NCBI GenBank assembly: GCA_050953885.1
Contig: JBMNNJ010000001.1
Span: 335,437 to 399,436, forward strand
Reading direction: 5' to 3'
Source: Patescibacteria group bacterium
Lineage (GTDB): Bacteria; Patescibacteriota; Microgenomatia; 0-14-0-10-38-17
Length of the DNA: 64,000 nucleotides
Shown here piece by piece: positions 1,918-24,263 of the stretch. The notes beneath the pieces are model-generated. The model saw nothing but the letters and a program-made list of their open reading frames with translations. It was not told where the DNA came from and did no database searches. A program made the translations under genes and the position numbers. The first letter of the stretch is position 1; the number at the start of each line of letters is the position of its first letter.

Positions 1918-1984
1918 AATTACTAGCTAAAGGGTAAGAAAAAATTAATGCAAAAATCAAAAATCAGAATTCAAAACCAAGTTC

Positions 1985-2140
1985 AAAGACCAAAACCATA
2001 AATTAAAACTCAAAACGCAAATGGCAAATGTTAAAACTACATGTCAAATCTTAAATCTTTCTTAGAATTTAAAATTATTTTTTCAGATTTGAGTTTTGAG
2101 TTGTAGTTTTGAGTTTTGCGATTTAACATTTGCGTTTATT
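1985..2140. repeat. MITE-like imperfect-palindrome element, family A ('CAAAACTCAAAAC...GCAAATGTTAAA' words with inverted terminal repeats)
   Basis: It is the reverse complement of 4120..4262. Its ends AAACGCAAATG...CATTTGCGTTT are inverted repeats. Confidence 0.7.
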
Positions 2141-2183
2141 TTCGCGTTAACTCGCGTATTTTAGTAATTTAACAATTTACTCT

Positions 2184-2849: not shown

Positions 2850-2864
2850 AAATTGAGAATAAAG

Positions 2865-4030: not shown

Positions 4031-4111
4031 TCCTCAATAAGCTGCTTCTCATTAATTCAATCCGCCAGCTGGCGAACAAAAGTCAAAAATTGTCTTCTGT
4101 ATCTGGTATTA

Positions 4112-4262
4112 AATATAAAAAACTCAAATGTTAAATCGCAAAACTCAAAACTACAACTCAAAACTCAAATCTAAAAAACATTTTTAAGTTCTAAGAAAGA
4201 TTTAAGATTTAACATGTAGTTTTGCCATTTGCCATTTGCGTTTTAAGTTTATTTTTCGCGCT
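4112..4262. repeat. Family A element, inverted copy; about 95% identical to 32960..33098
   Basis: AAACTCAAATGTTAAATCGCAAAACTCAAAACTACAACTCAAAACTCAAATCT...TTTGCCATTTGCCATTTGCGTTTTAAG. Confidence 0.7.
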
Positions 4263-4288
4263 AATTCGTGTCTTTTAACAATTTTAAC

Positions 4289-4909: not shown

Positions 4910-4965
4910 AAAAAACCCATCTCTCTAAACTTTAATAAAACAAAAAGTATTTGTCAAGTCAAGGT

Positions 4966-5692: not shown

Positions 5693-5698
5693 AAAAAC

Positions 5699-5727
5699 TT
5701 GACTTTTACCCCGTTGTGTTATAAGAT
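5699..5727 (+). promoter_or_regulatory. Sigma70-like promoter directly outside IS copy 1, facing the radical-SAM gene
   Basis: TTGACT (5699-5704), a 17-nt spacer, then TAAGAT (5722-5727). A strong RBS AAAGGAGAG (5951-5959) sits 6 nt before ATG 5966. Confidence 0.5.
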
Positions 5728-5965
5728 TTACGTATCTCATAATAATCAATGGTAGGCAATTTTGCTGTCTATTTTTTGGTTATTATTAAAGATCATTTTT
5801 TTCAGGCAAAGTAAGCGGTTTTTGACAAAAGCGTCAAAAAAAACCAAAATACTTTGTTTTGGAAAATATTCAGTTTTGGTCCGCCTCAGGTGGAGCACCT
5901 TGACAAGTTGTAATTACCTCCATCAATGATTCCTTCTGGCCTTAATTTATAAAGGAGAGATTCTC

Positions 5966-7294: not shown

Positions 7295-7412
7295 GGAGCA
7301 AGAGGTCAGTTGCGTCATCGGCTGTGATCAAGACGGCGGTTCTGACCCGTGCGACTCTTGCGACAACGGCGGTGATTGCGTTTGTGATGCTGGGGATGGT
7401 ACCTGGACCTAA
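7266..7412 (+). CDS. Small Cys/Asp/Gly-rich peptide (48 aa), candidate RiPP precursor (SCIFF/ranthipeptide- or sactipeptide-like)
   Basis: The peptide is MPAGIVSLLEEQEVSCVIGCDQDGGSDPCDSCDNGGDCVCDAGDGTWT, with 6 Cys and 9 Asp in the C-terminal 33 residues after a short acidic leader. Its ATG at 7266 overlaps the 3' end of the radical-SAM/SPASM gene in another frame and is preceded by a GGGGG RBS-like run. It is not in the supplied ORF track because it is under 60 aa. Confidence 0.55.
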   Translation: MPAGIVSLLEEQEVSCVIGCDQDGGSDPCDSCDNGGDCVCDAGDGTWT

Positions 7413-7620
7413 TCAAAGTGGCTTGATGACGGTCACAGTATCGCCTCAGTAGTTCTAAGAGCATCTATTGGTGAAAACCAAAATCACAACTTGTTTGTGG
7501 TTGCTTTTTAAGCTAGATGCTCTTTTTCTTTTTCAAATTTGCTATAATGCTCTAAGAGAATTATCGAGGCCGTAGCGCCGCTGTATAATAATCTGAGTCG
7601 TTCATTTTAAAATAAAAGGT

Positions 7621-8283
7621 GTGGTTTTTGTCGTTAAATATTCACTAGAAAAAGATATTTGGAATCATTTGAATTCGAACTGGAGATTTCGTTTTCGAAA
7701 ATATGGAAGAAAGAATATTCAGAAAAAACTGCTTCAAACTTATCCCGAAGAATATCGCCGCAATCTCGCTCAAGCCAAAACAGAAAAAGAAGCCACGGTT
7801 GTTATTAAAAGTTTTTTAGCCTCTTTACCTAAAAGTTTTCAAAATACTACCCCAATAATTGGCAAAGGAGTCGAGAAAGTTCTGAACGAAGAAAAAAAGC
7901 AGATAATTTCTTCTTTAGAAAAACTTTATGGTAAACCTTTTCCATTTAAAGAAATAACTGTTTATCTTACCACTGGCACTATTCACCCATATAATTATAA
8001 AGAAAGATGGTTTATGACTGGAAGAAATTCCAGCCTTGATAAGCATATTAAAACCGCTAAACACGAACTTAACCATTTTATGTTTTATTACTATTATCCT
8101 CATTTAAGGAAGAAGTTGGGTGTTGAGAAATATGAAAGACTAAAAGAGGCTTTAGCAATATTCACTAATCCTGAAGGTAATGATAAGCCCGATGTAAAAA
8201 AGTTGGAGAAATATCTAAAAACGCTTTCAGGTCAACCAATGGATGAGATTATAGAGAAAGCTTTGGGAAGTAAATATTTGTAA
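7621..8283 (+). CDS. Hypothetical protein with an HExxH zinc-metallopeptidase-like motif; AT-rich (~33% GC), compositionally foreign
   Basis: A 220-aa ORF with a GTG start and KTAKHELNHFMFYYY (HELNH = HExxH). Two extended -10 boxes (TGCTATAAT 7533-7541, TGTATAAT 7582-7589) lie upstream. GC is far below the flanking genes. Confidence 0.55.
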   Translation: MVFVVKYSLEKDIWNHLNSNWRFRFRKYGRKNIQKKLLQTYPEEYRRNLAQAKTEKEATVVIKSFLASLPKSFQNTTPIIGKGVEKVLNEEKKQIISSLEKLYGKPFPFKEITVYLTTGTIHPYNYKERWFMTGRNSSLDKHIKTAKHELNHFMFYYYYPHLRKKLGVEKYERLKEALAIFTNPEGNDKPDVKKLEKYLKTLSGQPMDEIIEKALGSKYL

Positions 8284-8299
8284 GTTCTCGAGAGTACTG

Positions 8300-9026
8300 A
8301 ATAAGTTAAGATACATATGCGACATTGATAGTTAGTGGATCACTACGCCAAGGCCTATCCCATCTTTAGTAGAATTAAAGGCTTAAAGGAGGTGAAAAAC
8401 ATGCTTTCAAGCCTAAGACAATTCTCTAAGAGTGAGGCAGCTCAACAAAGAATGAAGATTATTAAGTTCTACCAACAATACGGAGAAAAAGCAACTAAGA
8501 ATTAAACACTCACCTAAACCAAGGGGCTTTGGCGATATTGTTTCTGATACCGTAGAGAGAATCACCGATGGGATTAGGGACTATTTTATCTCTACTGTTG
8601 ATGCCAAGATGAAATTTGCCCTGACTCTTAATTACCAAAGACTAACCAGTAAGAAGATGAGAGATTTTTACTTTAGATTTAAAGATGTCTACCCGGGGAA
8701 AGTGGCTGTTTGACAATCAGATAATGGCGGTGAGAACTTAGGAGTCTTTGACCAACAATTAGCTAAGGATAAGATTCCCATTATTTCATCTCTCCCCGTT
8801 GTCCTAAGATTGATACCTTGGTGGAAAGATACCACCGCACTTCTCAAGAGGAGTTTATTAATCCCCACCTTGACACTATTCATGACAAAGGGGTCTTTCA
8901 AAGAAAACTATCTGATTATTTAATCTGGGACAACACGGAAAGACCCAATCATTCTTTAAACCTTAAGAGCCCCTTGGAATATTTCATTGAAAAAGGAGGC
9001 ATGTCGTAAAAGTACTTGGCTTAGAC
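8300..9026 (+). mobile_element. Decayed IS remnant, copy 2 (identical to 4966..5692, same orientation)
   Basis: Identity is exact over 727 bp. The identical predicted ORF pairs 5355..5567/8689..8901 and 5484..5675/8818..9009 confirm the 3334-bp offset. Confidence 0.8.
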
Positions 9027-9208
9027 ATAAGGTTGCCATTTTTAAAAAAATAAGTTAAAATAACTTTTATTATGAACAAAACTCATCAAAAAAACCAGCC
9101 GGTGCCGAAAAAAGATAAAAAAGAGGTCTTAGCAAAAGCGACTTTTTTCCGTCCCCAGCCGAAAAAAATTTTTCGGGTGGCCCAGCATCGCGTTTAACCA
9201 AACTTCCC

Positions 9209-10066
9209 ATGGCGCAAATAAATCTCAACAAACTTCCTGATAATAGTGCGGAAATCTTGGTCAAAGTCCCCTGGGAAGAAGTTGAAAAAGAATACCAAAA
9301 AGCCCTTGAGGAGCTTCAAAAAGAAGCCACTCTTCCCGGCTTTCGCAAGGGCAAGGCTCCCAAGGCTCAAGTGGAAAAATCAATTGGCAAAGAAAAAATT
9401 TATCAAGAAGTAATCGAGCAATTAATACCCCGCCTTTACCAAGAAGCGCTAACAAGCCAAAAAATTAACCCCATCATTAGCCCTAAGGTAGAGCTCATTG
9501 CGGCCCAAGAAGGAAAAGATTGGGAAATAAAATTTACCACGGCGGAAAAGCCAACGGTTAGCTTAGGAAATTACCAGGAGGAAATTAAAAAAATAAACAC
9601 CAAGGGAAAAATTTGGACACCAGAAAGCGAAGAGAAAAAAACCCCAGAAGAAAAAGAAAAGGAAGAAAGAGAAAAGCTTGACCAAATTATAGAAACAATT
9701 CTAAAAGCAAGCCAAGTAACCTTACCGGCTATTTTATTGGAAAACGATGTTAACCAGAAACTTGCCGGCTTAATCGAAAAAACCGAAAAGTTAGGCCTTA
9801 CTTTGGAGCAATACCTTGCTTCCCTTGGCAAAACCGCCGCCGAAATTCGCCGCGAATACGAGGAGGAAAGCCGTCGTAATTGGCAGTTAGAATTGGTTTT
9901 GGCAAAAATTGCCGACGAGGAAAAAATTACCGTTAGCGATGAGGAAATTAACCAATTTATCGCCAAAACGCCGCAAAGTGATCAAAAAGCCCTAGAACAA
10001 CAACGCTACTTAATCGCCGCCATGCTAAGACAACAAAAAACCCTCAATTTTTTAAAAAATCTTTAA
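9209..10066 (+). CDS. tig: Trigger factor (short form lacking the PPIase domain)
   Basis: The N-terminal ribosome-binding signature LPGFRKGKAP (GFRxGxxP) is followed by a C-terminal arm-domain-like region. At 285 aa there is no FKBP insert. Confidence 0.75.
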   Translation: MAQINLNKLPDNSAEILVKVPWEEVEKEYQKALEELQKEATLPGFRKGKAPKAQVEKSIGKEKIYQEVIEQLIPRLYQEALTSQKINPIISPKVELIAAQEGKDWEIKFTTAEKPTVSLGNYQEEIKKINTKGKIWTPESEEKKTPEEKEKEEREKLDQIIETILKASQVTLPAILLENDVNQKLAGLIEKTEKLGLTLEQYLASLGKTAAEIRREYEEESRRNWQLELVLAKIADEEKITVSDEEINQFIAKTPQSDQKALEQQRYLIAAMLRQQKTLNFLKNL

Positions 10067-10109
10067 AAAACTTGCAAAGCGCCAAAGCTTATAGTAGAAT
10101 AGCTATAAG

Positions 10110-10712
10110 ATGAAAAGCCAGGGCCAAAGCCAAAAAACAGCCAGCAGCGCTCTTGGTGAAGAGCTAAAAAGAACTCTAAGGGAAGAACTAACCCAAAATT
10201 TCCCCGCGGAAATTACCGCCCAAATTCAGGGAGAAAAACCTGCCTCCCAGGAAATTCTTCCCGGCCAAAGTGTTAATCTTACTGAAAAAGTTAACCAAGA
10301 ACAAAAACCTCCCTTTATCCCTTCTTTTTATCAGGAAAAATCGCCGTTTATTTTGAAAGAAAGCGCGACGGAAATAGAAACTAAAATTAGTATCCAAAGC
10401 TTGCGGCAAGAAATCCAAAAAGAAAGCCAGAGAGTAGAGGAGGCGGCGGTTAACTTAAGCCAAGAGCTGGCTTCAAGCGTGGCCGAGGAAAATCTTTTTC
10501 CTCACCAAGCTACCCAGGAACACCTTTCTTTTTTAGAAAACCTCTTAAAAACCTTGCGCGTTTTTCGGGAAAAAATCGAGGATAGCCAAGTTTGGCTAGC
10601 CGCCTCAAGTCAACGCCAAAGCCGACGCAATTTTTTCTGGGGACAGGTAAAAAAATCCGGCAGTAAATTTCTTCTTTCTTCCGATCGTACCCCCGCCACC
10701 CAGACAGGGTAA
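10110..10712 (+). CDS. Hypothetical protein (low-complexity, Gln/Glu/Ser-rich)
   Basis: A 200-aa ORF with no recognisable motif. Confidence 0.4.
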   Translation: MKSQGQSQKTASSALGEELKRTLREELTQNFPAEITAQIQGEKPASQEILPGQSVNLTEKVNQEQKPPFIPSFYQEKSPFILKESATEIETKISIQSLRQEIQKESQRVEEAAVNLSQELASSVAEENLFPHQATQEHLSFLENLLKTLRVFREKIEDSQVWLAASSQRQSRRNFFWGQVKKSGSKFLLSSDRTPATQTG

Positions 10713-10867
10713 ACTAAGACACACCGGATACAACAGGATTAAATACGGATTGAACAGGATTTTTATCCTGCTTTATCCTGTAAATATCATGTGTGATCCC
10801 GTGTGCTTCGCTGACAATTTAACAATATAGCAATGAAGTTTCTGTGTTAAAATAATAACTAAATCTT

Positions 10868-10941
10868 GGGCAGTTAGCTCAGTTGGCTAGAGCGCTCGCT
10901 TGACATGCGAAAGGTCACAGGTTCAAGTCCTGTACTGCCCA
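10868..10941 (+). tRNA. tRNA-Val (anticodon GAC)
   Basis: A hand-folded cloverleaf. The acceptor stem is GGGCAGT/ACTGCCC and the D arm is GCTC...GAGC. The anticodon stem CTCGC/GCGAA has one C-A mismatch around the loop TTGACAT. The T arm is ACAGG-TTCAAGT-CCTGT, the discriminator is A, and no CCA is encoded. Confidence 0.8.
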
Positions 10942-11459
10942 CAGCAGAAGAAGATATTAAAATATTAAGAGATATTAATGCATAATAAAAAAGTGCAAAG
11001 TGCAAATATCAGAGATTAAAACCTAAATCAAAGTGCAAAAACAAAAGAAAAACTTAAATGTTAAATCGCAAAACTCAAAACTACAACTCAAAACTCAAAG
11101 CTTAATCCGCCCACGGGCGGACAAAATCATGGGTGAAATATTTGGAATGCTTGAAACGTTTGAAGTGTAAGAACAGCAAACGATTCAAGCGTTTCAAGCA
11201 TCAAGTTTTAAAGCCGATCCTGTCCGCCAGCTGGCGGATTCATCAAGATGACGATTTTTTTATAACTGCCATTCTGACGAAAGTCAGAATCAAATAGCTA
11301 AAAGTTAAAAGTTAAAATTTAAAAGTCAAAAGTACAAGTTAAAATTAAAAAGTAAAGCAAAAAACTTTTAACTTTTGACTTGTAATTTTGACTTTTGACT
11401 TTTGAATTTTGAATTATTTTTTTCGTTTCCATTCGTGTTAATTCGTGTATTTTAATTCT

Positions 11460-13211
11460 ATGGTCAAATCTAAAAACGATCCTCTTTCAACAATGCGCCA
11501 TTCGGCGGCTCATGTTTTAGCGGCGGCGGTTTTAAAGCTATATCCCCAAACAAAACTTGGCATTGGTCCGGCCATTGAAAACGGCTTCTATTACGATTTC
11601 GAGTTTGAAAAACCTCTTTCAAAAGAAGATCTTCCCAAAATAGAGAAAGAAATGGCTAAAATCGTCAAAAGCAATTTTCCTTTTATTAAAAAAACCGCCT
11701 CTTTAGCCGAAGCCAAAAAATTATTTAAAAATCAACCCTATAAGCAAGAATTAATTAAAGATTTAGAGAGTAGGGGAAAGAAAGAAGTTTCTCTTTATCA
11801 AAGCGGTGATTTTATCGATCTTTGCGCCGGGCCTCATCTTCAGAGCACCGGCAAAATCGGTTCCTTTAAGCTTCTTTCTTTGGCAGGAGCCTATTGGCGA
11901 GGAAGCGAGAAAAACCCCATGCTCACTCGCATTTACGGAAGTGCTTTCCCAACTAAAAAAGAACTGGAAAACCATCTTGCCCAACTTGCCGCCGCCGAGG
12001 AAAGAGACCATCGCCTTTTGGGTAAAAAATTAGATCTTTTCTCCTTTCATCCCGACGCCGCCCCGGGCGATATTTTCTGGCATCCTAAGGGCTACTTTTT
12101 GATGAAAAAACTCATCGAGTTTTGGCGTCAAGAGCATGAAAAACAAGGCTATGGCGAGGTGCGCACCCCGGAAATTTTAAAAAACAAGGTGTGGCGGCAA
12201 AGCGGTCATCTAAAATCCTTTGCCGAAAAAATGTATCAGGTAAAAACTCCCGACATTAATTCCTGGGATGCCTGCGTTAAGCCGATGAATTGCGATGGGG
12301 GGATCATGATTTACCAAAGCAAGCTTCGCTCCTACCGCGACCTTCCCTTAAGATTAGGCGAAATTGGCGTTGTCCACCGTTTTGAAGCCTCGGGCGAACT
12401 TCACGGCATTATCCGCACCCGCGAATTCACCCAAGACGACGCTCATATTTTCTGCCGCCCCGATCAGGTAGAAGAAGAAATCGAAAAGGTGATTAATCTC
12501 TGCTTTTATTTTTATAAAACCTACGGGCTCAAGCTTGATCATTTGGAGCTTTCCACTCGACCAGAAAAGTCAATTGGTTCAGACGCTATTTGGGAAAAAG
12601 CAGAAAAAATTATGGGAAAAGTCTTGAAGGAAAGCGGGCGGCCCTACCAGATTAACCCCGGGGAAGGGGCTTTTTACGGACCTAAAATTGATTTTCATTT
12701 GCGCGATTCTTTGGGCCGCACTTGGCAATGTTCCACCATTCAGCTTGATTTTGCCCAGCCGGAAAACTTTAATCTTTCCTATATTGACGAAAAGGGGAAG
12801 AAAAAAAGGCCGGTGATGATCCACCGGGTTATTTATGGATCGCTGGAACGGTTTTTGGGGATCTTAATTGAAAGCTACGGCGGCGCTTTCCCGCTTTGGC
12901 TTTCCCCGGTTCAGGCTAAAATTATTCCCATCAGCAATAAAGAATTATCCTATAGTAGAAATGCCTTTGAAAAACTAAAAGAAAATAACCTCCGAGTGGA
13001 ATTAGACGACCGCTCCCAAACCGCCTCGGCCAAAATCCGCCAAGCCCAAGAAGAAAAAATTCCTTATATGATTATTATTGGTCAAAAAGAAGAAAAAAAC
13101 CAAACCATCAATATCAGAACCCGCGAGGGAAAAATTTTAGGAGAGAAAAAATTAGAGGATTTTATAAAAAAAGCAAAGAGAGAAGAAGCGGAGAAAAAAG
13201 ACAAGAATTAA
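11460..13211 (+). CDS. thrS: Threonyl-tRNA synthetase (short form without N-terminal TGS domain)
   Basis: MRHSAAHVLAAAV (editing/second domain), HRDHRLLGKKLDLF, FTQDDAHIFC and class II motifs, plus a C-terminal anticodon-binding domain. The ORF track starts at GTG 11445 inside the upstream repeat; ATG 11460 is more likely. Confidence 0.9.
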   Translation: MVKSKNDPLSTMRHSAAHVLAAAVLKLYPQTKLGIGPAIENGFYYDFEFEKPLSKEDLPKIEKEMAKIVKSNFPFIKKTASLAEAKKLFKNQPYKQELIKDLESRGKKEVSLYQSGDFIDLCAGPHLQSTGKIGSFKLLSLAGAYWRGSEKNPMLTRIYGSAFPTKKELENHLAQLAAAEERDHRLLGKKLDLFSFHPDAAPGDIFWHPKGYFLMKKLIEFWRQEHEKQGYGEVRTPEILKNKVWRQSGHLKSFAEKMYQVKTPDINSWDACVKPMNCDGGIMIYQSKLRSYRDLPLRLGEIGVVHRFEASGELHGIIRTREFTQDDAHIFCRPDQVEEEIEKVINLCFYFYKTYGLKLDHLELSTRPEKSIGSDAIWEKAEKIMGKVLKESGRPYQINPGEGAFYGPKIDFHLRDSLGRTWQCSTIQLDFAQPENFNLSYIDEKGKKKRPVMIHRVIYGSLERFLGILIESYGGAFPLWLSPVQAKIIPISNKELSYSRNAFEKLKENNLRVELDDRSQTASAKIRQAQEEKIPYMIIIGQKEEKNQTINIRTREGKILGEKKLEDFIKKAKREEAEKKDKN

Positions 13212-13409
13212 AGGGAATGAGAAACGAATAGATACGAAAAATAAACTCAAAATGCAAATGGCAAATGGCAAATGGCAAAACTACATGTCAAATGTTAAAA
13301 CTTTTTAAAGCTTAAAGTTATTTTTTAGATTTGATCCGCCAGTTGGCGGATTGAGTTGTCGTTTTAGTGCTGGTGCAGGGCCAGCTAGCGGAGAGGATCA
13401 TCCCCGTAG

Positions 13410-13467
13410 CCGTCATCCTGACGAAAGTCAGGATCTAACTGATTCTGAATCAAGTTCAGAATGACGC
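13410..13467. repeat. Paired hairpin modules GTCATCCTGAC-GAAA-GTCAGGATC and GATTCTGAA-TCAAG-TTCAGAATGAC
   Basis: The same two stem-loops, with minor variation, recur at 11262-11290, 14455-14530, 24097-24185, 29300-29370, 30129-30160, 32140-32235, 37940-38085 and 51585-51670. Confidence 0.7.
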
Positions 13468-13616
13468 TAATCGTGGCCGTTATTCTAACAATCCGTCAGC
13501 TGACGAATTCGTCAGAATAACAGTTACGGTCAGCCCGAAACAATGAAACAATAAACTTTCTCTTGCCAACTTTCCCTTCCTGTGCTAAACTTACTGCAGT
13601 TTGAACAAAAGCTAAC

Positions 13617-14126
13617 TTGAAACAGCCAAAATTTTATCGTCTTAATCAGTACATTAGCGCCCCAACATTGCGAGTTTTAAACGAACAGGGGAAACAAATC
13701 GGCATTTTAACCCGAGAAGAAGCCTTAAAAAAAGCCCAAGAGGAAAAACTTGACTTGGTGGAAATTGCTCCCCAAGCAAAGCCCCCGGTGGTAAAAATTA
13801 TCGACTTTAAAAAATTTAGATATTTAGAGGAGAAAAAAGAAAAAAAGGGCCAAAAGACGCAAAAAACAAAAGAGGTTAAAATGAGGCCTTTTATTGGCGA
13901 AAATGACTTTAATTTTCGCCTTAAACGCGCCCAGGAATGGCTCAAAGAGGGACAAAATGTGCGGGTAACGGTTAACTTTCGCGGTCGGGAGTTTACCCAA
14001 AAAGAGGCCGGTTTCGCCCTTTTGGAAAAATTTTCCCAAGGAGTTTCCTCATTTGGCCAGCCTAAAGATAAGCCCAAAATGATGGGACCAAACCTATTCA
14101 TTACGTTGGAACCATTAAAAAGATGA
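13617..14126 (+). CDS. infC: Translation initiation factor IF-3
   Basis: ISAPTLRVLNEQGKQIGILTREEALKKAQEEKLDLVEIAPQAKPPVVKIIDFKKFRY matches the IF-3 N- and C-domain consensus. The start is non-canonical (TTG), as is usual for infC. Confidence 0.88.
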   Translation: MKQPKFYRLNQYISAPTLRVLNEQGKQIGILTREEALKKAQEEKLDLVEIAPQAKPPVVKIIDFKKFRYLEEKKEKKGQKTQKTKEVKMRPFIGENDFNFRLKRAQEWLKEGQNVRVTVNFRGREFTQKEAGFALLEKFSQGVSSFGQPKDKPKMMGPNLFITLEPLKR

Positions 14127-14320
14127 AGCAAAAAAGAAAAACCAAAAAATCGTTGGCGAAAAGGTTTAAAGTTACCAAAAGCGGCAAGGTTTTGCATCGC
14201 TCTTCTTTTGGCCGCCATCTTAAAAGCGCGAAAAGCAAGGGTCAAAAAAGCCGTTACCGCAAACCAAAGGAGCTTACCGGTAAAATGGCCAAAAAAATTA
14301 AAAAAGTGGCGGGAAAATAA
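14123..14320 (+). CDS. rpmI: 50S ribosomal protein L35
   Basis: MKQKRKTKKSLAKRFKVTKSGKV... is a basic 65-aa protein, overlapping the infC stop as in the infC-rpmI-rplT operon. Confidence 0.85.
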   Translation: MKQKRKTKKSLAKRFKVTKSGKVLHRSSFGRHLKSAKSKGQKSRYRKPKELTGKMAKKIKKVAGK

Positions 14321-14578
14321 AAAAACTTGTATTAAGTAAAAATCAAAAGTCAAAAACAATAAATAAACTCAAATATTAAATCGCAATCCGCCAGCCCCGC
14401 ACCGTATGGTGCAGGACCAGCTGACGGATCAGGGCAAGCTCTAAACTTCACCAATGAAACGTCATCCTGAACTTGATTCAGGATCTGCTTTAAAATTAAA
14501 AAGCAGATCCTGACTTTCGTCAGGATGACAGTTTTAACAATTTAGCCATTTAACAGTTTAACAATTTAATCAACAACC
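14321..14578. repeat. Repeat-module insertion (palindrome plus two hairpin units) between rpmI and rplT
   Basis: It contains AATCCGCCAGC...GCTGACGGAT, GTCATCCTGAACTTGATTCAGGATC and GATCCTGACTTTCGTCAGGATGAC, the same modules seen in many other intergenic regions, followed by the TTAACAATTTA upstream word. Confidence 0.7.
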
Positions 14579-14954
14579 ATGCGCGTTAAAACCGGCACGG
14601 TTCGCCATGCCAAACACCAAAAAACCCTGAAAGCCACCCGCGGTTATCGGATGACCAAAAACCGCCTTTACAAAGCGGCCCATGAAGCCGAACTTCATGC
14701 TGGTCAATACGCTTACGTGGGTCGCAAAAATCGGAAAAGAGACTTTCGCCAGCTTTGGATCACCCGTCTTAACGCCGCCTCTAAAGCCGTATAACCTAAA
14801 ATATAATCAGTTCATCGCCCTCTTGGAAAAAAATAAAATTGACCTTAACCGCAAAATATTAGCCAATTTAGCCCTTGAGGATCCCCAAACCTTTGCGGTT
14901 ATTGTTAAAAAGATAACTTCAAAGCAACAAAATGTTAAGCAAGCTAAAAATTAA
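14579..14954 (+). CDS. rplT: 50S ribosomal protein L20, reading frame interrupted (+1 shift near 14789)
   Basis: Frame A (14579..14794) encodes MRVKTGTVRHAKHQK...AGQYAYVGRKNRKRDFRQLWITRLNAASKAV*. The conserved C-terminal half (...YNLKYNQFIALLEKNKIDLNRKILANLALEDPQTFAVIVKK) continues in the +1 frame (ORF 14682..14954). Skipping one nucleotide at ...AAA GCC (G) TAT AAC... restores a full L20. Confidence 0.75.
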
Positions 14955-15968
14955 AACTCTCAAAAGCAGGGCAGAAAAAGAAATCAAGCTTTGCCAAAAA
15001 AATGATGAGCTTGAAAAAATAAGAGTTAAATATTTAGGCAGAAAAGGGCTTTTAACCAGTTTGATTAAAGAACTGCCTTTGCTTCCTCCCCCTCAAAAAA
15101 AAGAGCTTGGTTCTCCTCTTAAACCAAAGCAAAAAAGAAATTGAAAACCTTCTTAAAAACCAGGAAAACAAAATTATTAAAGAAGGAAAGGAAGAGTGGC
15201 TTGATTTAACCCTGCCGGGGGAAATCCCTCCCCATGGCCATCTTCATCCCACCACCACTGCCATTTGGGAAATCAGCCAGCTTTTCTACCATCTGGGTTT
15301 TACTCTTGGTCTCTTACCCCGAAGTAGAATGGGAATATTTTGCCTTTGAAGCGCTTAATATGCCCAAAAATCACCCGGCCCGCGATGACTTTGAAACCTT
15401 TTTTATTGACGCTCCCGCCCATAAAAAATTTGGCAAAATAGTTTTAACCCCTCATACCTCTTCCGGACAAGTAAGAGAGATGAGGCGAGTAGGTCAACCA
15501 CCGGTAAGAATGATTAATATTGGTAAATGCTACCGGCCTAATTGGGACGCCACCCATTTACCAATGTTTCACCAATTTGAAGGGTTAGTGATTGATAAGG
15601 GTATCAACCTTTCCCACCTTAAGGGAATTTTCGATTATTTTGTTAAACATTTTTATGGCCCAAAGCGAGAAATCAGGCTGCGCCCTTTTCATTTCCAATT
15701 TACCGAACCCTCTTTCGAAGTTGATATCAACTGCGCTGTCTGCGGCGGCAAGGGCTGTCGCCTTTGCAAACAAGGCTGGCTGGAATTAGGCGGCTCGGGC
15801 ATGGTCCATCCCAGGGTGCTGGCCGCCGGGGGCATTGACCCCCAAATTTATTCCGGCTTTGCTTTTGGCTGGGGGATTGAACGCACCTTTATGATGAAAA
15901 GCGGCCTAAAACTTAACGACATCCGTCTTTTCTACCAAAATGACGGCCGATTCTTGGAACAATTTTGA
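14932..15968 (+). CDS. pheS: Phenylalanyl-tRNA synthetase alpha subunit, reading frame interrupted twice (+1 shifts near 15115 and 15296-15299)
   Basis: Three consecutive ORFs in frames 1, 2 and 0 (14932..15144, 15107..15349, 15234..15968) together align collinearly to PheS: IRVKYLGRKG...LPPP, then LDLTLPGEIPPHGHLHPTTTAIWEI...GFTL, then ...EALNMPKNHPARDDFETFFID...FHQFEGL...FAFGWGIERTFMM. Both junctions fall at CTT codons (CCT CTT|A AAC; ACT CTT|G GTC). Confidence 0.75.
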
Positions 15969-15975
15969 GACACAA

Positions 15976-18033
15976 ATGAATATTTTCATTCCCTCTTCCT
16001 GGCTCTCCGACTTTTTAAAAGCAAAAGCCTCGGTTGAGGAAATTGCCCGCTATCTTTCCTTATGCAGCCAATCGGTAGAAAAAATTCACCCTTCTCCTGA
16101 CGGTGATAAAATTTTGGAGATCGAAGTCACTTCTAACCGTCCCGACTGTCTTTCAGTGATCGGCATTGCCCGCGAGGCCAACGCTGCCCTCAAAAGCAAT
16201 GGTTTTTCTTCCTCTTTCCTGCCGCCCAAAAAAGAAAAAATTAACTTAACTTCCTTACCAAAGCTGCCTCTTAAAGTAACGATTACCCCTCCCTCGATTT
16301 GCCCACGCTTTTGCGCCCTGCTTATTGAGAATGTTAAAGTTGGTCCTTCTCCTAAGATTATTCAAGAAAGACTTAAAAAATCCGGCATCAGGGCAATCGA
16401 TAATGTCGTTGATATTTCCAATTATTTAATGATTGAAACCGGCCAGCCCATTCACACCTTTGATTATGACAAAATTTTGGACCAAAAAATGATCATGAGA
16501 CTGTCTAAGAAAGGCGAAGCGGTAACGACGCTGGACGGCGTCACAAGAGAATTGCCTGGTGGTGATATTGTGATTGAAGACGGGAAGGGGCGGCTAATTG
16601 ATCTTTGCGGCATTATGGGAGGAGAAAACAGCGCTATCGATAAAAACACCAAACGAGTCCTTTTTTTTGTCCAAGCTTATGACCCCGTTTTAATCCGCCG
16701 TACTTCAATGCTTTTGGGCCATCGTACCGAGGCGGCAATGCGTTTTGAACGAGGCATCGACCTTGAAGCCATTCCCGAAGTAGTTTTCCGAGGAGCAAAA
16801 CTTATTGCCCAAAACGCCAACGGGAAAATTGCTTCCCAACTGGTTGATATTTATCCCCGTAAAAAGTCCCCAAAAATTGTCTCCCTAAATTTTGCCAAGG
16901 CGGCAAAAATTATCAATGCTTCCCTCAAACCGGAAAAAATAATTGAAAGCTTAACTCTGTTAGAATTTAGGCTCCAAAAGAAAACAAAAGAGGAGGCCAT
17001 CTTTTTGGTTCCCAGCTTTAGAAGCGAGGACATTTCCTGCCAGGAAGACTTGGTTGAGGAAATCGCTCGCCTTTACGGCTATTTTAATTTAAAAAGTATT
17101 CTCCCGCCCTTGCCGGAAAACCTTACCCCGCCGCCGGAAAAACCAGACCCTAGCAAAAAAGGAAAATTCGAACCGCTTTTTTCTTGGGAAAAAAAGGCCA
17201 AAACCTACCTTTGCCACCAAGGCCTTTGGGAAAGCTTTTCTTATTCATTTTTAAGCCGGGAATTAATTAATAAAAGCCGCCTTGAAAAGCCCTGTTTGCG
17301 TCTTAAAAATCCTATTTCAGCGGAATTTGAATATTTGCGAAGCTCTCTTTTCACCTCGCTTTTGCAAACTTTTTCCCAAAATCAAGCTAACTTTCCCCAA
17401 ATTTCTTTCTTTGAACTGACCAACATTTACTTGCCTCAAAAGAATAACCTGCCCCACGAAAAAAGACAATTAGCAGCCTTAAGCCCGGAAAAGAATATTT
17501 TTAAAGTTAAGGGTATTATTGAAGGTCTTTTCTTGGAAATGGGCGTTAAAAACTATTCTTTTACCGCCCAAAAAAAAGAAGAATCCCCTTGGGCAGAAAA
17601 GAAAGAAGGCGTCCAAATTATCGCTCATCAAAAACCGGTGGGGTTCTTAGGATTTATTGACCCCCAAATTCTTAATAATTTTCAAATAAAAACTCCTTTG
17701 GTTGGCTTTGTTCTTGACTTCGAAGAACTAGCCCAAGAGGCAACTACGGCCAAAACTTATGCGCCTCTTCCTTCTTTTCCTCCCGTTATTGAAGACCTAA
17801 CTCTTTCCTTTCCTCCCAAAACTTATCTTGGTCCGGTTATCACCACCATTAAAACCACTTCTTCATTAATTAAAAAAGTAGAAATTGCCAGCGCTTTTGG
17901 CAACCGCCGCACTTTTCGCCTTACCTATCAACATCCCCGCCACAATCTTAACAGTAATGAGGTTAAAAAACTAAGGGAAAAAATTATTAAAACTTTGGAG
18001 GAAAAATTTAGCGCCAAGGCCGTGGTGGGATAA
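15976..18033 (+). CDS. pheT: Phenylalanyl-tRNA synthetase beta subunit
   Basis: MNIFIPSSWLSDFL at the N-terminus, B3/B4 and B5 regions (EIEVTSNRPDCLSVIGIAREA) and a C-terminal anticodon-binding-like domain. The ORF track starts at 15940 overlapping pheS; ATG 15976 is more likely. Confidence 0.88.
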   Translation: MNIFIPSSWLSDFLKAKASVEEIARYLSLCSQSVEKIHPSPDGDKILEIEVTSNRPDCLSVIGIAREANAALKSNGFSSSFLPPKKEKINLTSLPKLPLKVTITPPSICPRFCALLIENVKVGPSPKIIQERLKKSGIRAIDNVVDISNYLMIETGQPIHTFDYDKILDQKMIMRLSKKGEAVTTLDGVTRELPGGDIVIEDGKGRLIDLCGIMGGENSAIDKNTKRVLFFVQAYDPVLIRRTSMLLGHRTEAAMRFERGIDLEAIPEVVFRGAKLIAQNANGKIASQLVDIYPRKKSPKIVSLNFAKAAKIINASLKPEKIIESLTLLEFRLQKKTKEEAIFLVPSFRSEDISCQEDLVEEIARLYGYFNLKSILPPLPENLTPPPEKPDPSKKGKFEPLFSWEKKAKTYLCHQGLWESFSYSFLSRELINKSRLEKPCLRLKNPISAEFEYLRSSLFTSLLQTFSQNQANFPQISFFELTNIYLPQKNNLPHEKRQLAALSPEKNIFKVKGIIEGLFLEMGVKNYSFTAQKKEESPWAEKKEGVQIIAHQKPVGFLGFIDPQILNNFQIKTPLVGFVLDFEELAQEATTAKTYAPLPSFPPVIEDLTLSFPPKTYLGPVITTIKTTSSLIKKVEIASAFGNRRTFRLTYQHPRHNLNSNEVKKLREKIIKTLEEKFSAKAVVG

Positions 18034-18115
18034 CGTGAACCCGCAGGGGTGATTCATAAATCAAGGCATGCTCCAAAGAATGGAGTAGCGGCCTTCGGCC
18101 CGTGCGGGAATAAGC

Positions 18116-18146
18116 GCGCAATAAATTGCGCTATTTCAATTATTTC
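18116..18146 (+). terminator. Rho-independent terminator candidate downstream of pheT
   Basis: GCGCAA-TAAA-TTGCGC hairpin (6-bp stem, 4-nt loop) followed by the T-rich tract TATTTCAATTATTTC. A GGCCTTCGGCC UUCG-type hairpin lies at 18088-18100. Confidence 0.45.
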
Positions 18147-18213
18147 ATTCGCTCATTCGCATTAATTCGTGTTTCCATTCGCGTTGATTCGCGTATTTTA
18201 ACAATTTAACAAT
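18143..18213. repeat. Tandem array of degenerate 'CATTCGCGT' units followed by TTTAACAATTTAACAAT
   Basis: Equivalent arrays, in either orientation, lie at 2120-2183, 4250-4290, 11415-11459, 29395-29445, 30200-30290, 30961-31010, 33100-33142, 34720-34780, 35640-35690, 36550-36600, 39254-39320, 56150-56220, 58720-58760, 59340-59385 and 61440-61480. Confidence 0.65.
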
Positions 18214-18219
18214 ATCTTT

Positions 18220-18567
18220 TCAGTTATTCCTTCTCCCTCGATGCTGTCTTTTGGAAAAAGGAGTTTCTTCAATTTGAGCCATTTGCATCGCCCTTTCCTT
18301 AATCATTATTCCCCGTGGCCGGTTATATTGAGGATCATTTTCCTCCAGCCACCGGCAACTTTCTTCATCCAAACCTTCATAAAACTCATTTACCATTACT
18401 GTCGTTTTCTCCCGATCAAAATTAATTTTATTCTTAAAAATTTCTTCCCACAATCCTAACGCCCGCTCAACCACTTCCCGTGTCCCGTTATCCATATCCG
18501 AAGGCAGAGGCATTTCCCGCCCCGAAGGACGAGGAAAAGGCATTTCCCTTCTAATTTCTTTACTCAT
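18220..18567 (-). CDS. Hypothetical small protein (115 aa) downstream of PBP1A
   Basis: An ORF with an internal duplication REMPFPRPSGREMPLPSD and no recognisable family. Confidence 0.4.
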   Translation of the reverse strand: MSKEIRREMPFPRPSGREMPLPSDMDNGTREVVERALGLWEEIFKNKINFDREKTTVMVNEFYEGLDEESCRWLEENDPQYNRPRGIMIKERAMQMAQIEETPFSKRQHRGRRNN

Positions 18568-18790
18568 GTCTATTTTTGCTTAGTAAATTCTACTATAGAT
18601 ATAGTAAAATAAAAAACAGAACTTGTCAATTCCCGCCCTTAGGACAACACCGGGTGTGGCAAACTGCCAATTCCAAACCTGAAAAGCGATTACCACAAAA
18701 ACTCCATGTTCAGCTGATTTTCCGCCCAAAATACTCACCAAATTAAATTTATTCTTTATCACGTTCCCTTAGATTTTAATAACCTTTAGC

Positions 18791-21451
18791 TTACTCCTCT
18801 CCGGTTGGCAAAAGGGTAGGCGAGAGGTTGGGGGTTAACGAGGGAACAGGAGTAAGTGTCGGCGAGGGGGAGAGTAAGGGCGTGGGGGTGGGGGTGGGGG
18901 CTTGCCAATCCCAAGCGACATTCACTCCAATTTTAATCTCTTCTTCTTTTTCCCGACCCTTAACATCCCGAACTTTGGCCTTAAGTTTATGCGGGCCATC
19001 GGGTAAAACCAAAGTAAGCCGGTATGGCGGGGAGGTGAAGGTTTCTTTCTCCTGATCATCAGCCCAAATCTTTACCCACTCTGTTTTTTCCAAAGAATTA
19101 ACTTCCACCTCTACTTCAAATTTATTCTCCACCTTTTCTTCATTTTTAGGCTTCTTAAAACGAATGGCCAGTTCTCCTCCCTGACAATATTCTTTGGGAG
19201 GATGATAACGAGGGTCTTCCTGGGTCGCTACCCACTCGTCAATCCCCTTTTGCCAACGGTTTTCTCCTCCCCAATAGGCGGCAAAAGGATCTTCTTCGGC
19301 AAAGATAAAAAATTCTTTCTCTTCATAATTTCCGTTCGCAATATCTTCCGGCGTTGCCAGTTTCCCCTCGTCACGGCAAATCTTTAAAAAAACATGAGTC
19401 TTGTCTTCACCTTGAGGCTGGGTTCCCTTGAGAAAATATTCCTGACGGGAGGGAAAACCGTCGTGAGCCAATTGCCCGGAAACAACATCAATATCCGCCT
19501 TAACCACCTCGTCGGGAGGAGTAAAGTTAACGTTCGGCTTGTCCTTCAGGGCCACCATAATTACTCGGCGCCAAATGGGGCTGGCGCCGGAAATGCCCGA
19601 AGCCACTTGTTTCATCGAAGAATTATCATTATTACCCACCCAAACTCCTACCAAAACCTGCGGCGTCCAACCCACCGCCCAATTATCCTTCATATTGTTT
19701 GTCGTCCCCGTTTTCACCGCTACCTGACGGCCGGGAATGTTAAGAAGAGAATTGGCGCCAAAAGAAATTAAACGGGCATTATTATCCGAAAGAATATCGG
19801 AAATAATAAATGCTTCCCCCTCCGTTAAAACCTGTTTTCCTTTTGTCGGCTTAAACTCTTCTAAAACTTTTCCTTCTTGGTTTTCTACTTTTAAAATTGC
19901 CGTCGGTTCCACCTTCAGTCCGCCGTTGGCAAAAGCCGCATAAGCGCCGGCCATCTCTATTAGCCTTACTTCCCCTCCACCCAAGGTAACGGCCAAACCA
20001 AATTTAGACAAATTTTCCGCTGTCGGTTTAAGAGTGTTAAAACCCATCTGGTAGGCAGTTTCTAGCATATTTTCCAAACCCACCTGGGCCAACATCTTGA
20101 CCGCCGGCACATTCAAAGAATTGCCCAAAGCAGAACGCATCAAAACCGGCCCATGATACTTGCCGTCATAATTAACGGGAATATATGGTTTTTCTTTAGA
20201 AGCGCCGGGGAATTCTGTCCGTGTATCCAACAAAAGGTGGGCAGCAGTATAGCCCTTTTTCAGAGCGGTTACATAAGTAACCGGCTTAATGGCCGAACCG
20301 GGTTGGCGCAAGCCTTGAGTGACCACATTTACTTTGCCAAAATTAGGCTCGTTATAATCTCGCGATCCCACCATTGCCAAAATCTCCCCGCTTTCAGGTT
20401 CCAAAACAATCACCGCCCCGTTAGTGATATTAAGGTTAACCACTTTTTCTATCTCCTCCGCCACGATTTTCTCCGCTTCCTGTTGAAGATCTAGATCAAG
20501 AGTGGTGGTCACTTTCAGCCCGCCATTTTCCACCATTTCCTCGCCGTAACGATCCACCAAAAGTTGCTTAACAAACATCACAAAATGGGGAGCGGCAAAA
20601 TCGGAGGTACGAGCGGCAAACTGAACCTGATCCAGCTCTTCTTCTGCCTTTTGCCGCTGTTCAACGGTAATATAGCCATCTTCTTCCATCCGACGCAAAA
20701 CTTGTTTTGTTCGCTCTTTATAGGCTTCAGGATTAGCGCCAAAGGGAGAATAAGCGGTAGGCCCTTGCGGCAAACCAGCCAGGATCGCCGCTTCTGTTAA
20801 GGTTAACTGGGAAACAGGTTTACCAAAATAAAGTTCCGAGGCCGCTTCTACGCCTCGGGTATTGCCTCCATAAGGCACTTCATTGAGGTACATTTCTAAA
20901 ATTTGGTCTTTGGAAAAACGGGCTTCAATTTGTATCGCCAGAATAAACTCCTTAATTTTTCGCGGCAGCGTTCGTTCCGAGGTCAGCAAAACATTCTTTA
21001 CTAGTTGTTGGGTGAGAGTAGAGCCGCCCTGAAGCTGCTGATGGAAGATGATGTTATAAAAAGCCCGGGCAATTCCCCGAGGCGAGAAACCTTTATGTTG
21101 ATAAAATTCTTTATCCTCAATAGCAATGGTTGCTTGACGCAAAACTTGCGGCACCTGATCCAATATTACCGGCGTTCGCTTTTCTTCCTGATAAATATCA
21201 TAAAGCAATTTTTGGTTACGGTCGTAAATACGCGTCGCAAAACCTTCCCGACGCACTACTTTCCCCGGCTGGGGTAAATCTCGGGCATACCAGGCAAAAA
21301 GAGCCACCGTTCCCAAAATCGCCACCAAAACAAAAATCCCCAAACCTGTCAGCACTTTTTTCCAAGGGAAAGGCTTTTTATCCCTTTCTTTCTTAAAAGA
21401 CTGACGTTTTTTTCTCATCCTTTCCTGCCAATTTTTAAACCAATCATCCAT
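18791..21451 (-). CDS. Class A penicillin-binding protein (PBP1A-type transglycosylase/transpeptidase) with Pro/Thr-rich C-terminal tail
   Basis: An N-terminal TM anchor, GT51 motifs (IAIEDKEFYQHKGFSPRGIARA; GGSTLTQQLVKN), the transpeptidase SxxK (PGSAIKPV), SxN and KTG(T) motifs, and a C-terminal PTPTPTP...LTPVPSLTP linker. Confidence 0.88.
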   Translation of the reverse strand: MDDWFKNWQERMRKKRQSFKKERDKKPFPWKKVLTGLGIFVLVAILGTVALFAWYARDLPQPGKVVRREGFATRIYDRNQKLLYDIYQEEKRTPVILDQVPQVLRQATIAIEDKEFYQHKGFSPRGIARAFYNIIFHQQLQGGSTLTQQLVKNVLLTSERTLPRKIKEFILAIQIEARFSKDQILEMYLNEVPYGGNTRGVEAASELYFGKPVSQLTLTEAAILAGLPQGPTAYSPFGANPEAYKERTKQVLRRMEEDGYITVEQRQKAEEELDQVQFAARTSDFAAPHFVMFVKQLLVDRYGEEMVENGGLKVTTTLDLDLQQEAEKIVAEEIEKVVNLNITNGAVIVLEPESGEILAMVGSRDYNEPNFGKVNVVTQGLRQPGSAIKPVTYVTALKKGYTAAHLLLDTRTEFPGASKEKPYIPVNYDGKYHGPVLMRSALGNSLNVPAVKMLAQVGLENMLETAYQMGFNTLKPTAENLSKFGLAVTLGGGEVRLIEMAGAYAAFANGGLKVEPTAILKVENQEGKVLEEFKPTKGKQVLTEGEAFIISDILSDNNARLISFGANSLLNIPGRQVAVKTGTTNNMKDNWAVGWTPQVLVGVWVGNNDNSSMKQVASGISGASPIWRRVIMVALKDKPNVNFTPPDEVVKADIDVVSGQLAHDGFPSRQEYFLKGTQPQGEDKTHVFLKICRDEGKLATPEDIANGNYEEKEFFIFAEEDPFAAYWGGENRWQKGIDEWVATQEDPRYHPPKEYCQGGELAIRFKKPKNEEKVENKFEVEVEVNSLEKTEWVKIWADDQEKETFTSPPYRLTLVLPDGPHKLKAKVRDVKGREKEEEIKIGVNVAWDWQAPTPTPTPLLSPSPTLTPVPSLTPNLSPTLLPTGEE

Positions 21452-21621: not shown

Positions 21622-21889
21622 GAAAACTAAAAGACGCGAATGAGAAACGAAAGAATAAAGCAAAGTGCAAATCTCAAAATGCAAAACCAAGCTCAAAAAC
21701 CAAAACCAGAAGCTGAAAATATTTTTGAACTTTGATTTAGGTTTTGCTCTTTGCTTTTTGCACTTTGCTTTTGCTCATTACACATGCTACGCATTACGGA
21801 CCTATTCGACCCACAACAATGAAACAATGTAACAATGAAATTCTGATACTTAATACATAATACTAAATACTTAATACAATATATAATAC

Positions 21890-23932
21890 ATGTCCCTAAA
21901 CCTCTCCGACTCGATTAGCAAGCTTCCTAAGGTTAACAAAAGTTATCTTCCCAAGCTTAAAAAATTAGGAATTAAAACCGTTGAGGATCTCCTTTACCAT
22001 TTTCCCTCGCGGCACATTGACTTTTCTTTAGTCTCCAAAATTAACCAAGCCCAAGTGGGGGAAATTTTGACTATTCGCGGGCAGGTGGTTAAAATTACCA
22101 GTGAGCCAAAAGGAAGAGGGAAAAGCATCCAACGAGCCACTATTATTGATGAAACAGGGCAAATTAACGCCATTTGGTTTAACCAACCATATTTAACCAA
22201 AATCTTTTTGGGGAAAACCATTAGCCTTTCCGGTGAGGTAAAACAATTTGCTGGCCGTTTAGTTCTCTCCTCGCCTGATTTTGAGATAAACTCTTTCTAT
22301 CGAAAAAATATCCATACCGGCCGGTTAGTGCCGGTTTATCCTCTCACCGCCGGCCTTTCTTCACGCTGGCTGCGCTGGCAAATAAGCAGCGCCTTAAAAC
22401 TCACCGCTGACCAAATTAAAGAATTTTTACCCCCCAAGCTGCTTCTTAGCGAAAGCCTGATTAATCAACAGGAAGCAATTAAGAAAATTCATTTCCCCGA
22501 GAACAGGATTGCTTTGGAAAAAGCGCGGGAAAGGCTTTCCTTTGATGAGCTATTTTGCTTTCAACTGGCCGGTTTTTGGCGCAAAGCCAAATGGCAAAAA
22601 GAAAGAAAGGCCTTTCCGCTCAAATCCGAACCGGAAAAAATTAAAGCTTTCCTAAAAACTCTTCCTTTTACCTTAACTGACGCTCAAAAAAGAGCCATTA
22701 GAGCTATTTTAAGCGATTTAAGCCAAAATAAGCCGGCTAATCGTCTTCTTCAGGGAGATGTGGGCAGCGGAAAAACAATTGTGGCCGCCACGGCCGCTTA
22801 CGCTACTTTCTTAAACGGCAAAAAAACCATCTTTATGGCCCCTACCGAAATCTTGGCCCAGCAGCACTACCAAACATTAAAAAAACTTCTTCCCAAATTA
22901 AAAATCGGCCTCTTAAGCTCGACCAGCAAAAAAAACACTCAAAAAGCAGATATTCTTGTTGGAACCCACGCGCTGCTTTTTAAAAAAGAACTGCCAGAAA
23001 ATGTCGCCCTATTGGTTATCGACGAGCAACACCGCTTCGGCGTTGCCCAACGGGCCGCCTTACTTGAAAAAAGCTCCCAAGAAAAATTTTTCCCTCATCT
23101 TCTCACTATCAGCGCCACCCCCATTCCCCGCACCATTGCCTTAACTTTCTTAGGCGATTTGAGTCTTACCTACTTAGACCAAATGCCGCCGGGCAGAAAA
23201 CCGGTTAAAACTTGGCTGGTGCCGGAAGAAAAACGGCGCGCCGCTTATACTTGGATAGAAAAAGAAATTAAAAAAAATCATCAACAGGCTTTTGTTATTT
23301 GCCCCTTAGTAGAGCAGTCGGAAAAAGAACTTTTAAAAAATATTAAAGCCGCCACTGCCGAATATGAAAAGCTGAAAAAAATTTTCCCCTCCCTTAAACT
23401 TGCTCTCCTTCACGGCCGTACTCCTGCCTTAGAAAAAGAAAAAATTATCAAACAGTTTGCCCGGGATAAAATTGATATCTTGGTTGCCACCCCCATTGTT
23501 GAGGTAGGCATTGATATTCCCGGCGCTAATTTAATCATCATCGAGGCCGCCGACCGTTTTGGCTTAGCTCAACTTCACCAGTTGCGCGGTCGGGTAGGCA
23601 GAAGAGAAAAGCAGGCCTATTGCCTGCTTTTTGCCTCGCCAAAAACAGGCCAAAAAAGCCTAAAACGCCTCCAGCTTTTTAGCCAAACCTATTCCGGCAT
23701 AAAATTGGCTCAAATAGATCTTGAAGAAAGGGGACCGGGAGAAATTTACGGGACAGCCCAGCATGGCTTTCCCCAAGCCAAAATTGCCTCTTTATCCGAC
23801 GCCCAATTAATTGAAAAAGTGCAAAAAGTTGTCAAAAATTTTGGCCCGGAGTTTTTAAAATCACCCGAAAAATTCCCTCTCTTGCAAAAAAGAGTGGAAA
23901 ATTATACAATAAAGCCCGTAGAAGCGAACTAA
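21890..23932 (+). CDS. recG: ATP-dependent DNA helicase RecG
   Basis: An N-terminal wedge domain, the Walker A motif DVGSGKTIVA, DEQHRFG (DExH) and helicase motif VI QLRGRVGR; 680 aa. Confidence 0.9.
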   Translation: MSLNLSDSISKLPKVNKSYLPKLKKLGIKTVEDLLYHFPSRHIDFSLVSKINQAQVGEILTIRGQVVKITSEPKGRGKSIQRATIIDETGQINAIWFNQPYLTKIFLGKTISLSGEVKQFAGRLVLSSPDFEINSFYRKNIHTGRLVPVYPLTAGLSSRWLRWQISSALKLTADQIKEFLPPKLLLSESLINQQEAIKKIHFPENRIALEKARERLSFDELFCFQLAGFWRKAKWQKERKAFPLKSEPEKIKAFLKTLPFTLTDAQKRAIRAILSDLSQNKPANRLLQGDVGSGKTIVAATAAYATFLNGKKTIFMAPTEILAQQHYQTLKKLLPKLKIGLLSSTSKKNTQKADILVGTHALLFKKELPENVALLVIDEQHRFGVAQRAALLEKSSQEKFFPHLLTISATPIPRTIALTFLGDLSLTYLDQMPPGRKPVKTWLVPEEKRRAAYTWIEKEIKKNHQQAFVICPLVEQSEKELLKNIKAATAEYEKLKKIFPSLKLALLHGRTPALEKEKIIKQFARDKIDILVATPIVEVGIDIPGANLIIIEAADRFGLAQLHQLRGRVGRREKQAYCLLFASPKTGQKSLKRLQLFSQTYSGIKLAQIDLEERGPGEIYGTAQHGFPQAKIASLSDAQLIEKVQKVVKNFGPEFLKSPEKFPLLQKRVENYTIKPVEAN

Positions 23933-24263
23933 AAAAGACGCGAATTAATACGAATGGAAAACAAATGAACGAATAGATGGTGTAAAAATAATTCAAAATT
24001 CAAAATTTAAAAGTCAAAATTGCAAGTTAAAAGTTAAAAGTTTTTTGCTCTACTTTTAAATTTTGGCTTGTACTTTTGACTTTTAGCTATTCGATTCTGA
24101 CTTTCGTCAGAACCTGTCCTGAACTTAATTCAGGAATGACGGCCACGATTAGCGTCATTCTGAACTTGATTCAGAATCAGTTAGATCCTGTCCGCCGGCT
24201 GGCGGATTGCATTTGTCTATTACCTGCAACAGTTTGATAATTTAATAATATTTATCTTTTCTT

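Follow-up and report, generated by a model that had tools for sequence, protein, structure and literature searches.

Do rplT, for ribosomal protein L20, and pheS in a Patescibacteria genome need three +1 ribosomal frameshifts to be expressed, or is the deposited sequence at fault? The question is raised by the window, the whole stretch of 64,000 nucleotides analyzed here, which is part of a 597,657-bp NCBI contig of a Patescibacteria (Microgenomates-like) metagenome-assembled genome (MAG). An operon in the window has the gene order thrS, infC, rpmI, rplT, pheS, pheT, all on the + strand. It begins with thrS (11445-13211); infC (13617-14126) and rpmI (14123-14320) are intact and together occupy 13617..14320 upstream of the breaks, and pheT (15976..18033) is intact downstream. 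The start of pheT differs by annotator, the ATG at 15940 being taken by JGI (697 aa, overlapping the end of pheS) and the ATG at 15976 by NCBI (685 aa).

A reading made from the letters of this DNA (the sequence-only reading) held that a +1 shift interrupts rplT at one place and pheS at two, and this is borne out by translation and by the pieces found with tblastn. With intact queries from a near-identical contig, L20 falls in frames 2 then 3, and PheS in frames 1, 2 and 3. The 5' piece of rplT (14579..14794, + strand) encodes 71 aa from the ATG at 14579 to a premature TAA at 14792-14794, and was deposited as MGI6776001.1, "50S ribosomal protein L20". Its 3' piece lies in the +1 frame at 14782..14954 (+), the homologous part of an ORF at 14682..14954, and is collinear with residues ~68-124 of the intact 124-aa L20 of contig L003. 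For pheS, piece 1 (14932..15144, +) encodes 70 aa up to a TGA at 15142-15144 and was deposited as MGI6776003.1 (hypothetical protein ACOX5S_01795), whose protein cluster has no other member. Piece 2 is an 80-aa ORF in the +1 frame (15107..15349, +; homologous part ~15115-15304). Piece 3, after a second +1 shift (15306..15968, +), holds the catalytic core; its protein is 100% identical to residues 125-344 of the L003 PheS, and it was deposited from the Met at 15360 (15360-15968) as MGI6776005.1, hypothetical protein ACOX5S_01805, 202 aa. The neighbors deposited around these fragments are MGI6775999.1 (IF-3), MGI6776000.1 (bL35) and MGI6776006.1 (PheT).

As the sequence-only reading had said, there is no second copy of either gene: tblastn with intact L20 and PheS found none in the window. 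No further split genes were found among the window's overlapping ORF pairs. The truncated products occur on the one NCBI contig only. In the cluster search, the 71-aa piece was the sole truncated L20 among the members listed, and the intact clusters had 56 (L20) and 70 (PheS) members, all single-frame where inspected. Exact gene look-ups with two of the truncated fragments found no occurrence beyond that contig, an exact-pattern scan of GTDB representatives gave no match, and a metagenome pattern scan returned only one contig, already known.

rplT and pheS on contigs of the same strain and of relatives

An identical RpmI protein was found on ten contigs from different samples. All seven of these that reach rplT encode a 124-aa L20, and six of the seven encode a 344-aa PheS; in the other, L010, the contig ends within pheS. 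An identical PheT was found on only two contigs, both with intact rplT and pheS. The independent contigs of the same strain are all single-frame, nine of them with rplT and eight with complete pheS. Contigs L003 and L040 (JGI 3300060679) and L005 (JGI 3300065561) belong to the same strain as the window. L003 and L040 differ from it at just 12 positions over 6.8-7.0 kb, and so does L005 over 5.1 kb; all 12 differences lie inside a 656-bp patch (14734..15389, + strand). This clustering, of 12/12 differences from L003 into 656 of 6,840 aligned bases, has P ~6e-12.

Elsewhere the window agrees with the public record. Near-identical public contigs cover 54,746 of its bases (~54.7 kb), with 100.000% identity at 1-9027, 5799-10329, 21725-24043, 28183-40585 and 42505-63230; the longest such stretches are 9,027, 12,403 and 20,726 bases. 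For near-identical contigs with listed differences, we found no window-private difference beyond the patch in the ~54 kb compared; the remaining differences belong to other contigs and not to the window, since another public contig matches the window exactly at each of them.

More distant relatives also have rplT and pheS in single frames without indels: L006 at 98.3% identity, L036-L039 at ~95%, L031-33 at 87%, and L034/35 at 82.5% (DNA identity over rplT and pheS). L012 and L014, with 41-51% PheT identity, are single-frame too, and the 120 PheS homologs listed are all 329-371 aa long. Among GTDB species representatives, the nearest is Microgenomates bacterium ADurb.Bin219 (51% PheT identity), and the nearest named PheS is from a Candidatus Shapirobacteria MAG (~88% protein identity). 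Record names such as "biogas fermenter metagenome" suggest that the related contigs derive from metagenomes of anaerobic digesters or biogas plants.

Extra bases and substitutions in the patch

The three extra bases were placed by alignment to the seven independent contigs. At site 1 the extra base is a C at 14781 (+ strand): the window reads GCCGCCT[C]TAAAG where close relatives have GCC TTA AAG, and the T of this site is a C in the 82% identical L034, L034/35 carrying CTC where close strains carry TTA. At site 2 (15113/15114, +) the window reads GGTT[CT]CC and relatives read GGTTTCC or GGTTCCC. The natural alleles here are GGTT[T]CC, giving Phe61, and GGTT[C]CC, giving Ser61 (L006, L036-39); the window has both letters in tandem, and is one insertion away from either allele. 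At site 3 the extra base is again a C (15305, +; window ACT[C]TTGG), next to a T at 15306 that is C in six relatives, L036-L039, L031 and L034 (Leu TTG versus CTN). Each insertion thus adjoins a T that natural relatives have as C, with the two alleles side by side as C+T or T+C. Without the three bases, both proteins equal those found elsewhere in the strain, except for F90L and possibly F61S, both common natural variants of PheS.

The other nine private differences are substitutions, one T>G (14734, +) and eight T>C (15148, 15160, 15200, 15226, 15238, 15262, 15286 and 15389, +). All 12 changes involve a T of the + strand. For nine substitutions on random bases all to hit T, P is ~5e-6; T>C affects 8/170 T, and A>G 0/235 A (Fisher P = 9e-4). 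Eight of the nine are at third codon positions and synonymous (P = 0.005 and 0.015), for which reason we rejected relaxed selection on the two genes. The ninth, TTT>CTT at 15200, is F90L, and Leu90 is found in most other strains of the protein cluster. Natural polymorphism was scored in contigs from samples other than the one that supplied this assembly's reads. Only 15 of the 170 T sites are C in a close relative, and four of the eight T>C fall on them (P = 0.003); with insertion sites 2 and 3 included, 6/11 T-to-C-type changes do so (P = 1.5e-4). The T>C at 15148, 15226 and 15389 are absent from every sampled relative, and the G at 14734 is present only in the distant relatives L034/L035; these four states count against an artifact of mixed alleles.

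On the sequences compared, then, the changes are private to one record and clustered locally, the sequence elsewhere is concordant, and the insertions coincide with natural T/C polymorphisms. No other assembly of this strain has the one-base insertions, and the three frame breaks are therefore almost certainly due to a local error of assembly rather than to programmed frameshifting. We are highly confident that the frameshifts are not biological, and somewhat less so, though still confident, of the combined statement that they are an artifact tied to strain polymorphism. Localized sequencing or assembly indels had been one of the two possibilities left by the sequence-only reading, and the intact same-strain contigs support it; the true genes are ordinary single-frame rplT and pheS.

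We hold less firmly to a specific mechanism, in which consensus building or polishing of mixed reads would be the cause. The organism, a Microgenomates-like CPR bacterium, would live in anaerobic digesters as several co-occurring strains that differ at many T/C sites, and the consensus step would have mishandled such sites within one ~650-bp stretch. At eight of them the consensus would have taken C against the T of the backbone strain; at three, both alleles would have been written next to each other (T+C or C+T), each adding one base and breaking the frame. A long-read consensus model would probably write both alleles if it scored a missing read base as cheaper than a mismatch. Published work backs this explanation in general terms only: consensus errors are dominated by indels and are more frequent in non-haploid samples (PMC7483855), and indel-truncated proteins are a recognized error class in long-read MAGs from anaerobic digesters. 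Such truncations can be measured, for instance with the IDEEL full-length-protein score (PMC9262707), and proovframe is one of the tools that correct them (bioRxiv 10.1101/2021.08.23.457338).

The present case resembles these indel-truncated MAG genes in that single-base indels divide conserved genes into neighboring ORFs named as short "hypothetical proteins", in that no second assembly shows the breaks, and in the shared setting of anaerobic digesters and strain microdiversity. It differs in that such indels typically lie in homopolymers and occur genome-wide, whereas here they are at T/C polymorphic sites in a window otherwise free of error, accompanied by a cluster of strictly T>C substitutions. 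The genome-wide indel noise of an unpolished long-read assembly was accordingly rejected, in view of the lack of other split genes and of the long 100% matches to short-read contigs.

Some of the data count against the artifact in its simplest form. Between 15113 and 15306 the window has 5/10 of the T>C differences that mark L036-type strains and 0/14 of their other differences (Fisher P = 0.006), and sites taken and not taken are interleaved at 2-5 bp, with C at 15200 and T at 15202 and 15205. This interleaving and the adoption of T>C alone led us to reject both majority-rule mixing of sampled strains and a recombination tract from any one of them. Nor is the patch the operon's most polymorphic segment, polymorphism among strains being equally dense in pheT, so polymorphism alone fails to explain the restriction to 650 bp. 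The origin of all nine substitutions in + strand T, which mixing alone does not account for either, points to a one-strand or chemistry-specific cause. Together with the restriction to 650 bp it suggests that one read, a one-strand family of reads, or strand-specific chemistry seeded the patch. Residual marks of a mutagenesis-based synthetic long-read method, as a source of one-strand T>C changes, would be no more than a guess; a paper describing such an assay gives no error spectrum (PMC12363240). Two other sources were considered and rejected: base-calling error at a methylation motif (by eye, the surroundings of the nine sites share no motif on either strand, and errors do not occur throughout the window), and a template/variable repeat pair of the DGR type (tblastn found no second copy of the tract in the window).

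As biology, the breaks in rplT and pheS are not a real feature and have no consequence. For the record, they mean that a public MAG has two essential genes wrongly annotated, in the form of one truncated L20 plus two or three "hypothetical proteins", which lowers completeness estimates and could pass for recoding in CPR bacteria; its L20 and PheS annotation should be treated as erroneous. The signature, T/C alleles in tandem together with a one-strand T>C bias, is unusual, and may identify a systematic fault in the consensus or polishing step for strain-mixed samples.

Alternative readings of the breaks and the patch

The other possibility of the sequence-only reading was programmed or tolerated +1 slippage, with the geometry of Ty1 or prfB at the pheS sites. 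By this account, shifts in rplT (at AAA-G or GCC-G) and in pheS (at CUU-A and CUU-G) would restore L20 and PheS. All three breaks are indeed +1, the slips CUU>UUA and CUU>UUG keep leucine (that at site 3 giving exactly the natural protein), and both genes are essential and without a second copy in the window. The shift places that had been named, ~14789, ~15115 and 15296-15299, hold as points where a ribosome would have to shift, except that the third is a few bases off. There are CTT codons at 15118 and 15305 as reported, and in rplT the TAA does directly follow GTA, a codon unable to re-pair in the +1 frame. The resemblance of the CTT sites to known slippage sites does not survive, however. 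The CTT at 15305 is made by the inserted C, which stands before TTG and gives CTT-G, and that at 15118 is the native sequence CTCTTAAAC, exposed by the change of frame at site 2; the pairing of CUU with a leucine +1 codon is therefore a by-product. Neither CTT adjoins a stop or a rare codon. In the codon usage of 17 window genes, the A-site codon after 15118 (AAA) is the commonest, at 66.9 per 1000, and that after 15305 (GGT) is mid-rank, at 13.2 per 1000; the 0-frame stops come 8 and 14 codons downstream. By eye, no Shine-Dalgarno-like stimulator (no GGAGG- or AGGGG-like run) is present in the 20 nt upstream of each site.

The prfB (release factor 2) frameshift is +1 at CUU UGA C with an upstream Shine-Dalgarno-like element. 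The pheS and rplT breaks share with it the +1 direction, the P-site CUU at two of three sites and a tRNA-Leu that could re-pair in the +1 frame; unlike prfB, they have no adjacent stop and no stimulator, are not conserved within the strain, and number three in two genes. The Ty1-type shift at CUU AGG C depends on a slow A-site read by a rare tRNA. Its CUU-A geometry is matched at 15118-15121, but there the A-site AAA is the region's most frequent codon, and the site is not conserved. A conserved frameshift site was absent from the same-strain contigs and from relatives with DNA identities of 95%, 87% and 82% or, in the PheT protein, 51%. The sequence-only reading had allowed that slippage would fail if related genomes had intact genes differing by one base, and the seven independent contigs are single-frame without the three bases, two of them being otherwise identical to the window over 5-7 kb. 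Slippage would moreover need three recoding sites and nine substitutions to have arisen together in 656 bp, with no further private change seen across the ~54 kb compared. We rejected programmed frameshifting for its lack of conservation and for a site anatomy with no adjacent stop, rare codon or stimulator, and consider slippage of either kind, programmed or tolerated, extremely improbable. We give next to no credence to the related proposal that the deposited sequence is right and represents a living CPR sub-lineage whose rplT and pheS carry a ~650-bp strand-specific T>C hypermutated tract with three C insertions, both essential proteins still being made through efficient +1 slippage at CUU-A, CUU-G and AAA-G without classical stimulators.

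The main rival to a consensus artifact, itself improbable, is a real but non-functional allele, in which strand-specific T>C hypermutation or damage over ~650 bp and three C insertions affected one molecule or a minor sub-population. The assembler would have chosen that branch, and the carrier cells would be dead ends, or library preparation itself would have caused the damage in vitro. Adenosine deamination is known to produce biased U>C hypermutation in RNA viruses, and clustered damage on single-stranded DNA yields strand-coordinated transitions; we know of no such mechanism for bacterial chromosomal genes. Like the products of these processes, the patch has many same-type transitions confined to a single strand over a few hundred bases; unlike them, its changes prefer synonymous, naturally polymorphic sites and include insertions. 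Its changes are strictly T-specific, so tight a cluster is about the size of one sequencing-library fragment or of a short read-derived branch, and the remainder of the window is free of error. Random damage, however, should not favor third codon positions (8/9, P = 0.005), synonymous changes or sites with natural T/C polymorphism (P = 1.5e-4), nor should it reproduce F61S and F90L, which are natural alleles; the loss of two essential single-copy genes at once also argues against it. That true pseudogenization was unlikely had been rightly judged before: the fragments occur on one contig only, and the same-strain contigs of other samples are intact, for which reasons we rejected it.

A partial rival leaves the verdict on the frameshifts as it is, and takes the nine substitutions to be a recombinant allele from an unsampled strain, only the three insertions being errors. 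The synonymous third-position character of 8/9 substitutions would fit such an origin, as would the presence of five of the nine states in relatives, a tract length typical of bacterial recombination, and the strain mosaicism of the operon. But a natural tract should have a balanced spectrum, as at 39477-39708, and not nine changes from T with eight of them to C, and the haplotype is absent from every sampled strain. We regard this rival as quite improbable, and prefer a local consensus artifact for insertions and substitutions alike.

Other features of the window

Strain mosaicism is seen across 9031-20569 in comparison with contigs L001, L002, L004 and L008, which match the window at 99-100% over the trigger factor gene and rplT-pheS-pheT but at only ~92% over thrS and a penicillin-binding protein gene. 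This pattern of identity implies frequent recombination among co-occurring strains. The natural tract that served as a control for the patch is at 39458-39708 in comparison with L016, at the 3' end of the gene for a 568-aa T2SSE-family ATPase. It has a 7-bp intergenic indel and 15 substitutions and no coding indel; its spectrum, over 39477-39708, is balanced (C>T 5, T>C 4, A>G 3, G>A 2, T>G 1).

A 24-nt palindromic hairpin, GTCATCCTGACGAAAGTCAGGATC, is present in seven copies on both strands where none is expected by chance (11268-11291, 13412-13435, 14506-14529, 29316-29339, 30139-30162, 32199-32222 and 51640-51663). The copies are apparently all intergenic. The rpmI-rplT spacer (14330-14578) is unusually long and folds at -73.4 kcal/mol (z = -9.4), and the thrS-infC spacer has a related hairpin copy in partly inverted orientation. 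The element has no match in Rfam, and looks like a dispersed REP/MITE-like element of the lineage. In the operon, Rfam found nothing except one tRNA gene (10868-10941; RF00005, 68.7 bits), in the spacer upstream of thrS.

Pfam matches on the identical public contig indicate that the DnaB helicase gene at 1-1917 of the window (3340-5952 of L026) contains an intein bearing a LAGLIDADG homing endonuclease domain. A large type IV pilus cluster at 28183-41177 has about ten pilin-like genes with the N-terminal methylation motif. The pilin set is strain-dependent: L019 has a different one, and over 29659-30805 it matches the window at only ~92%.
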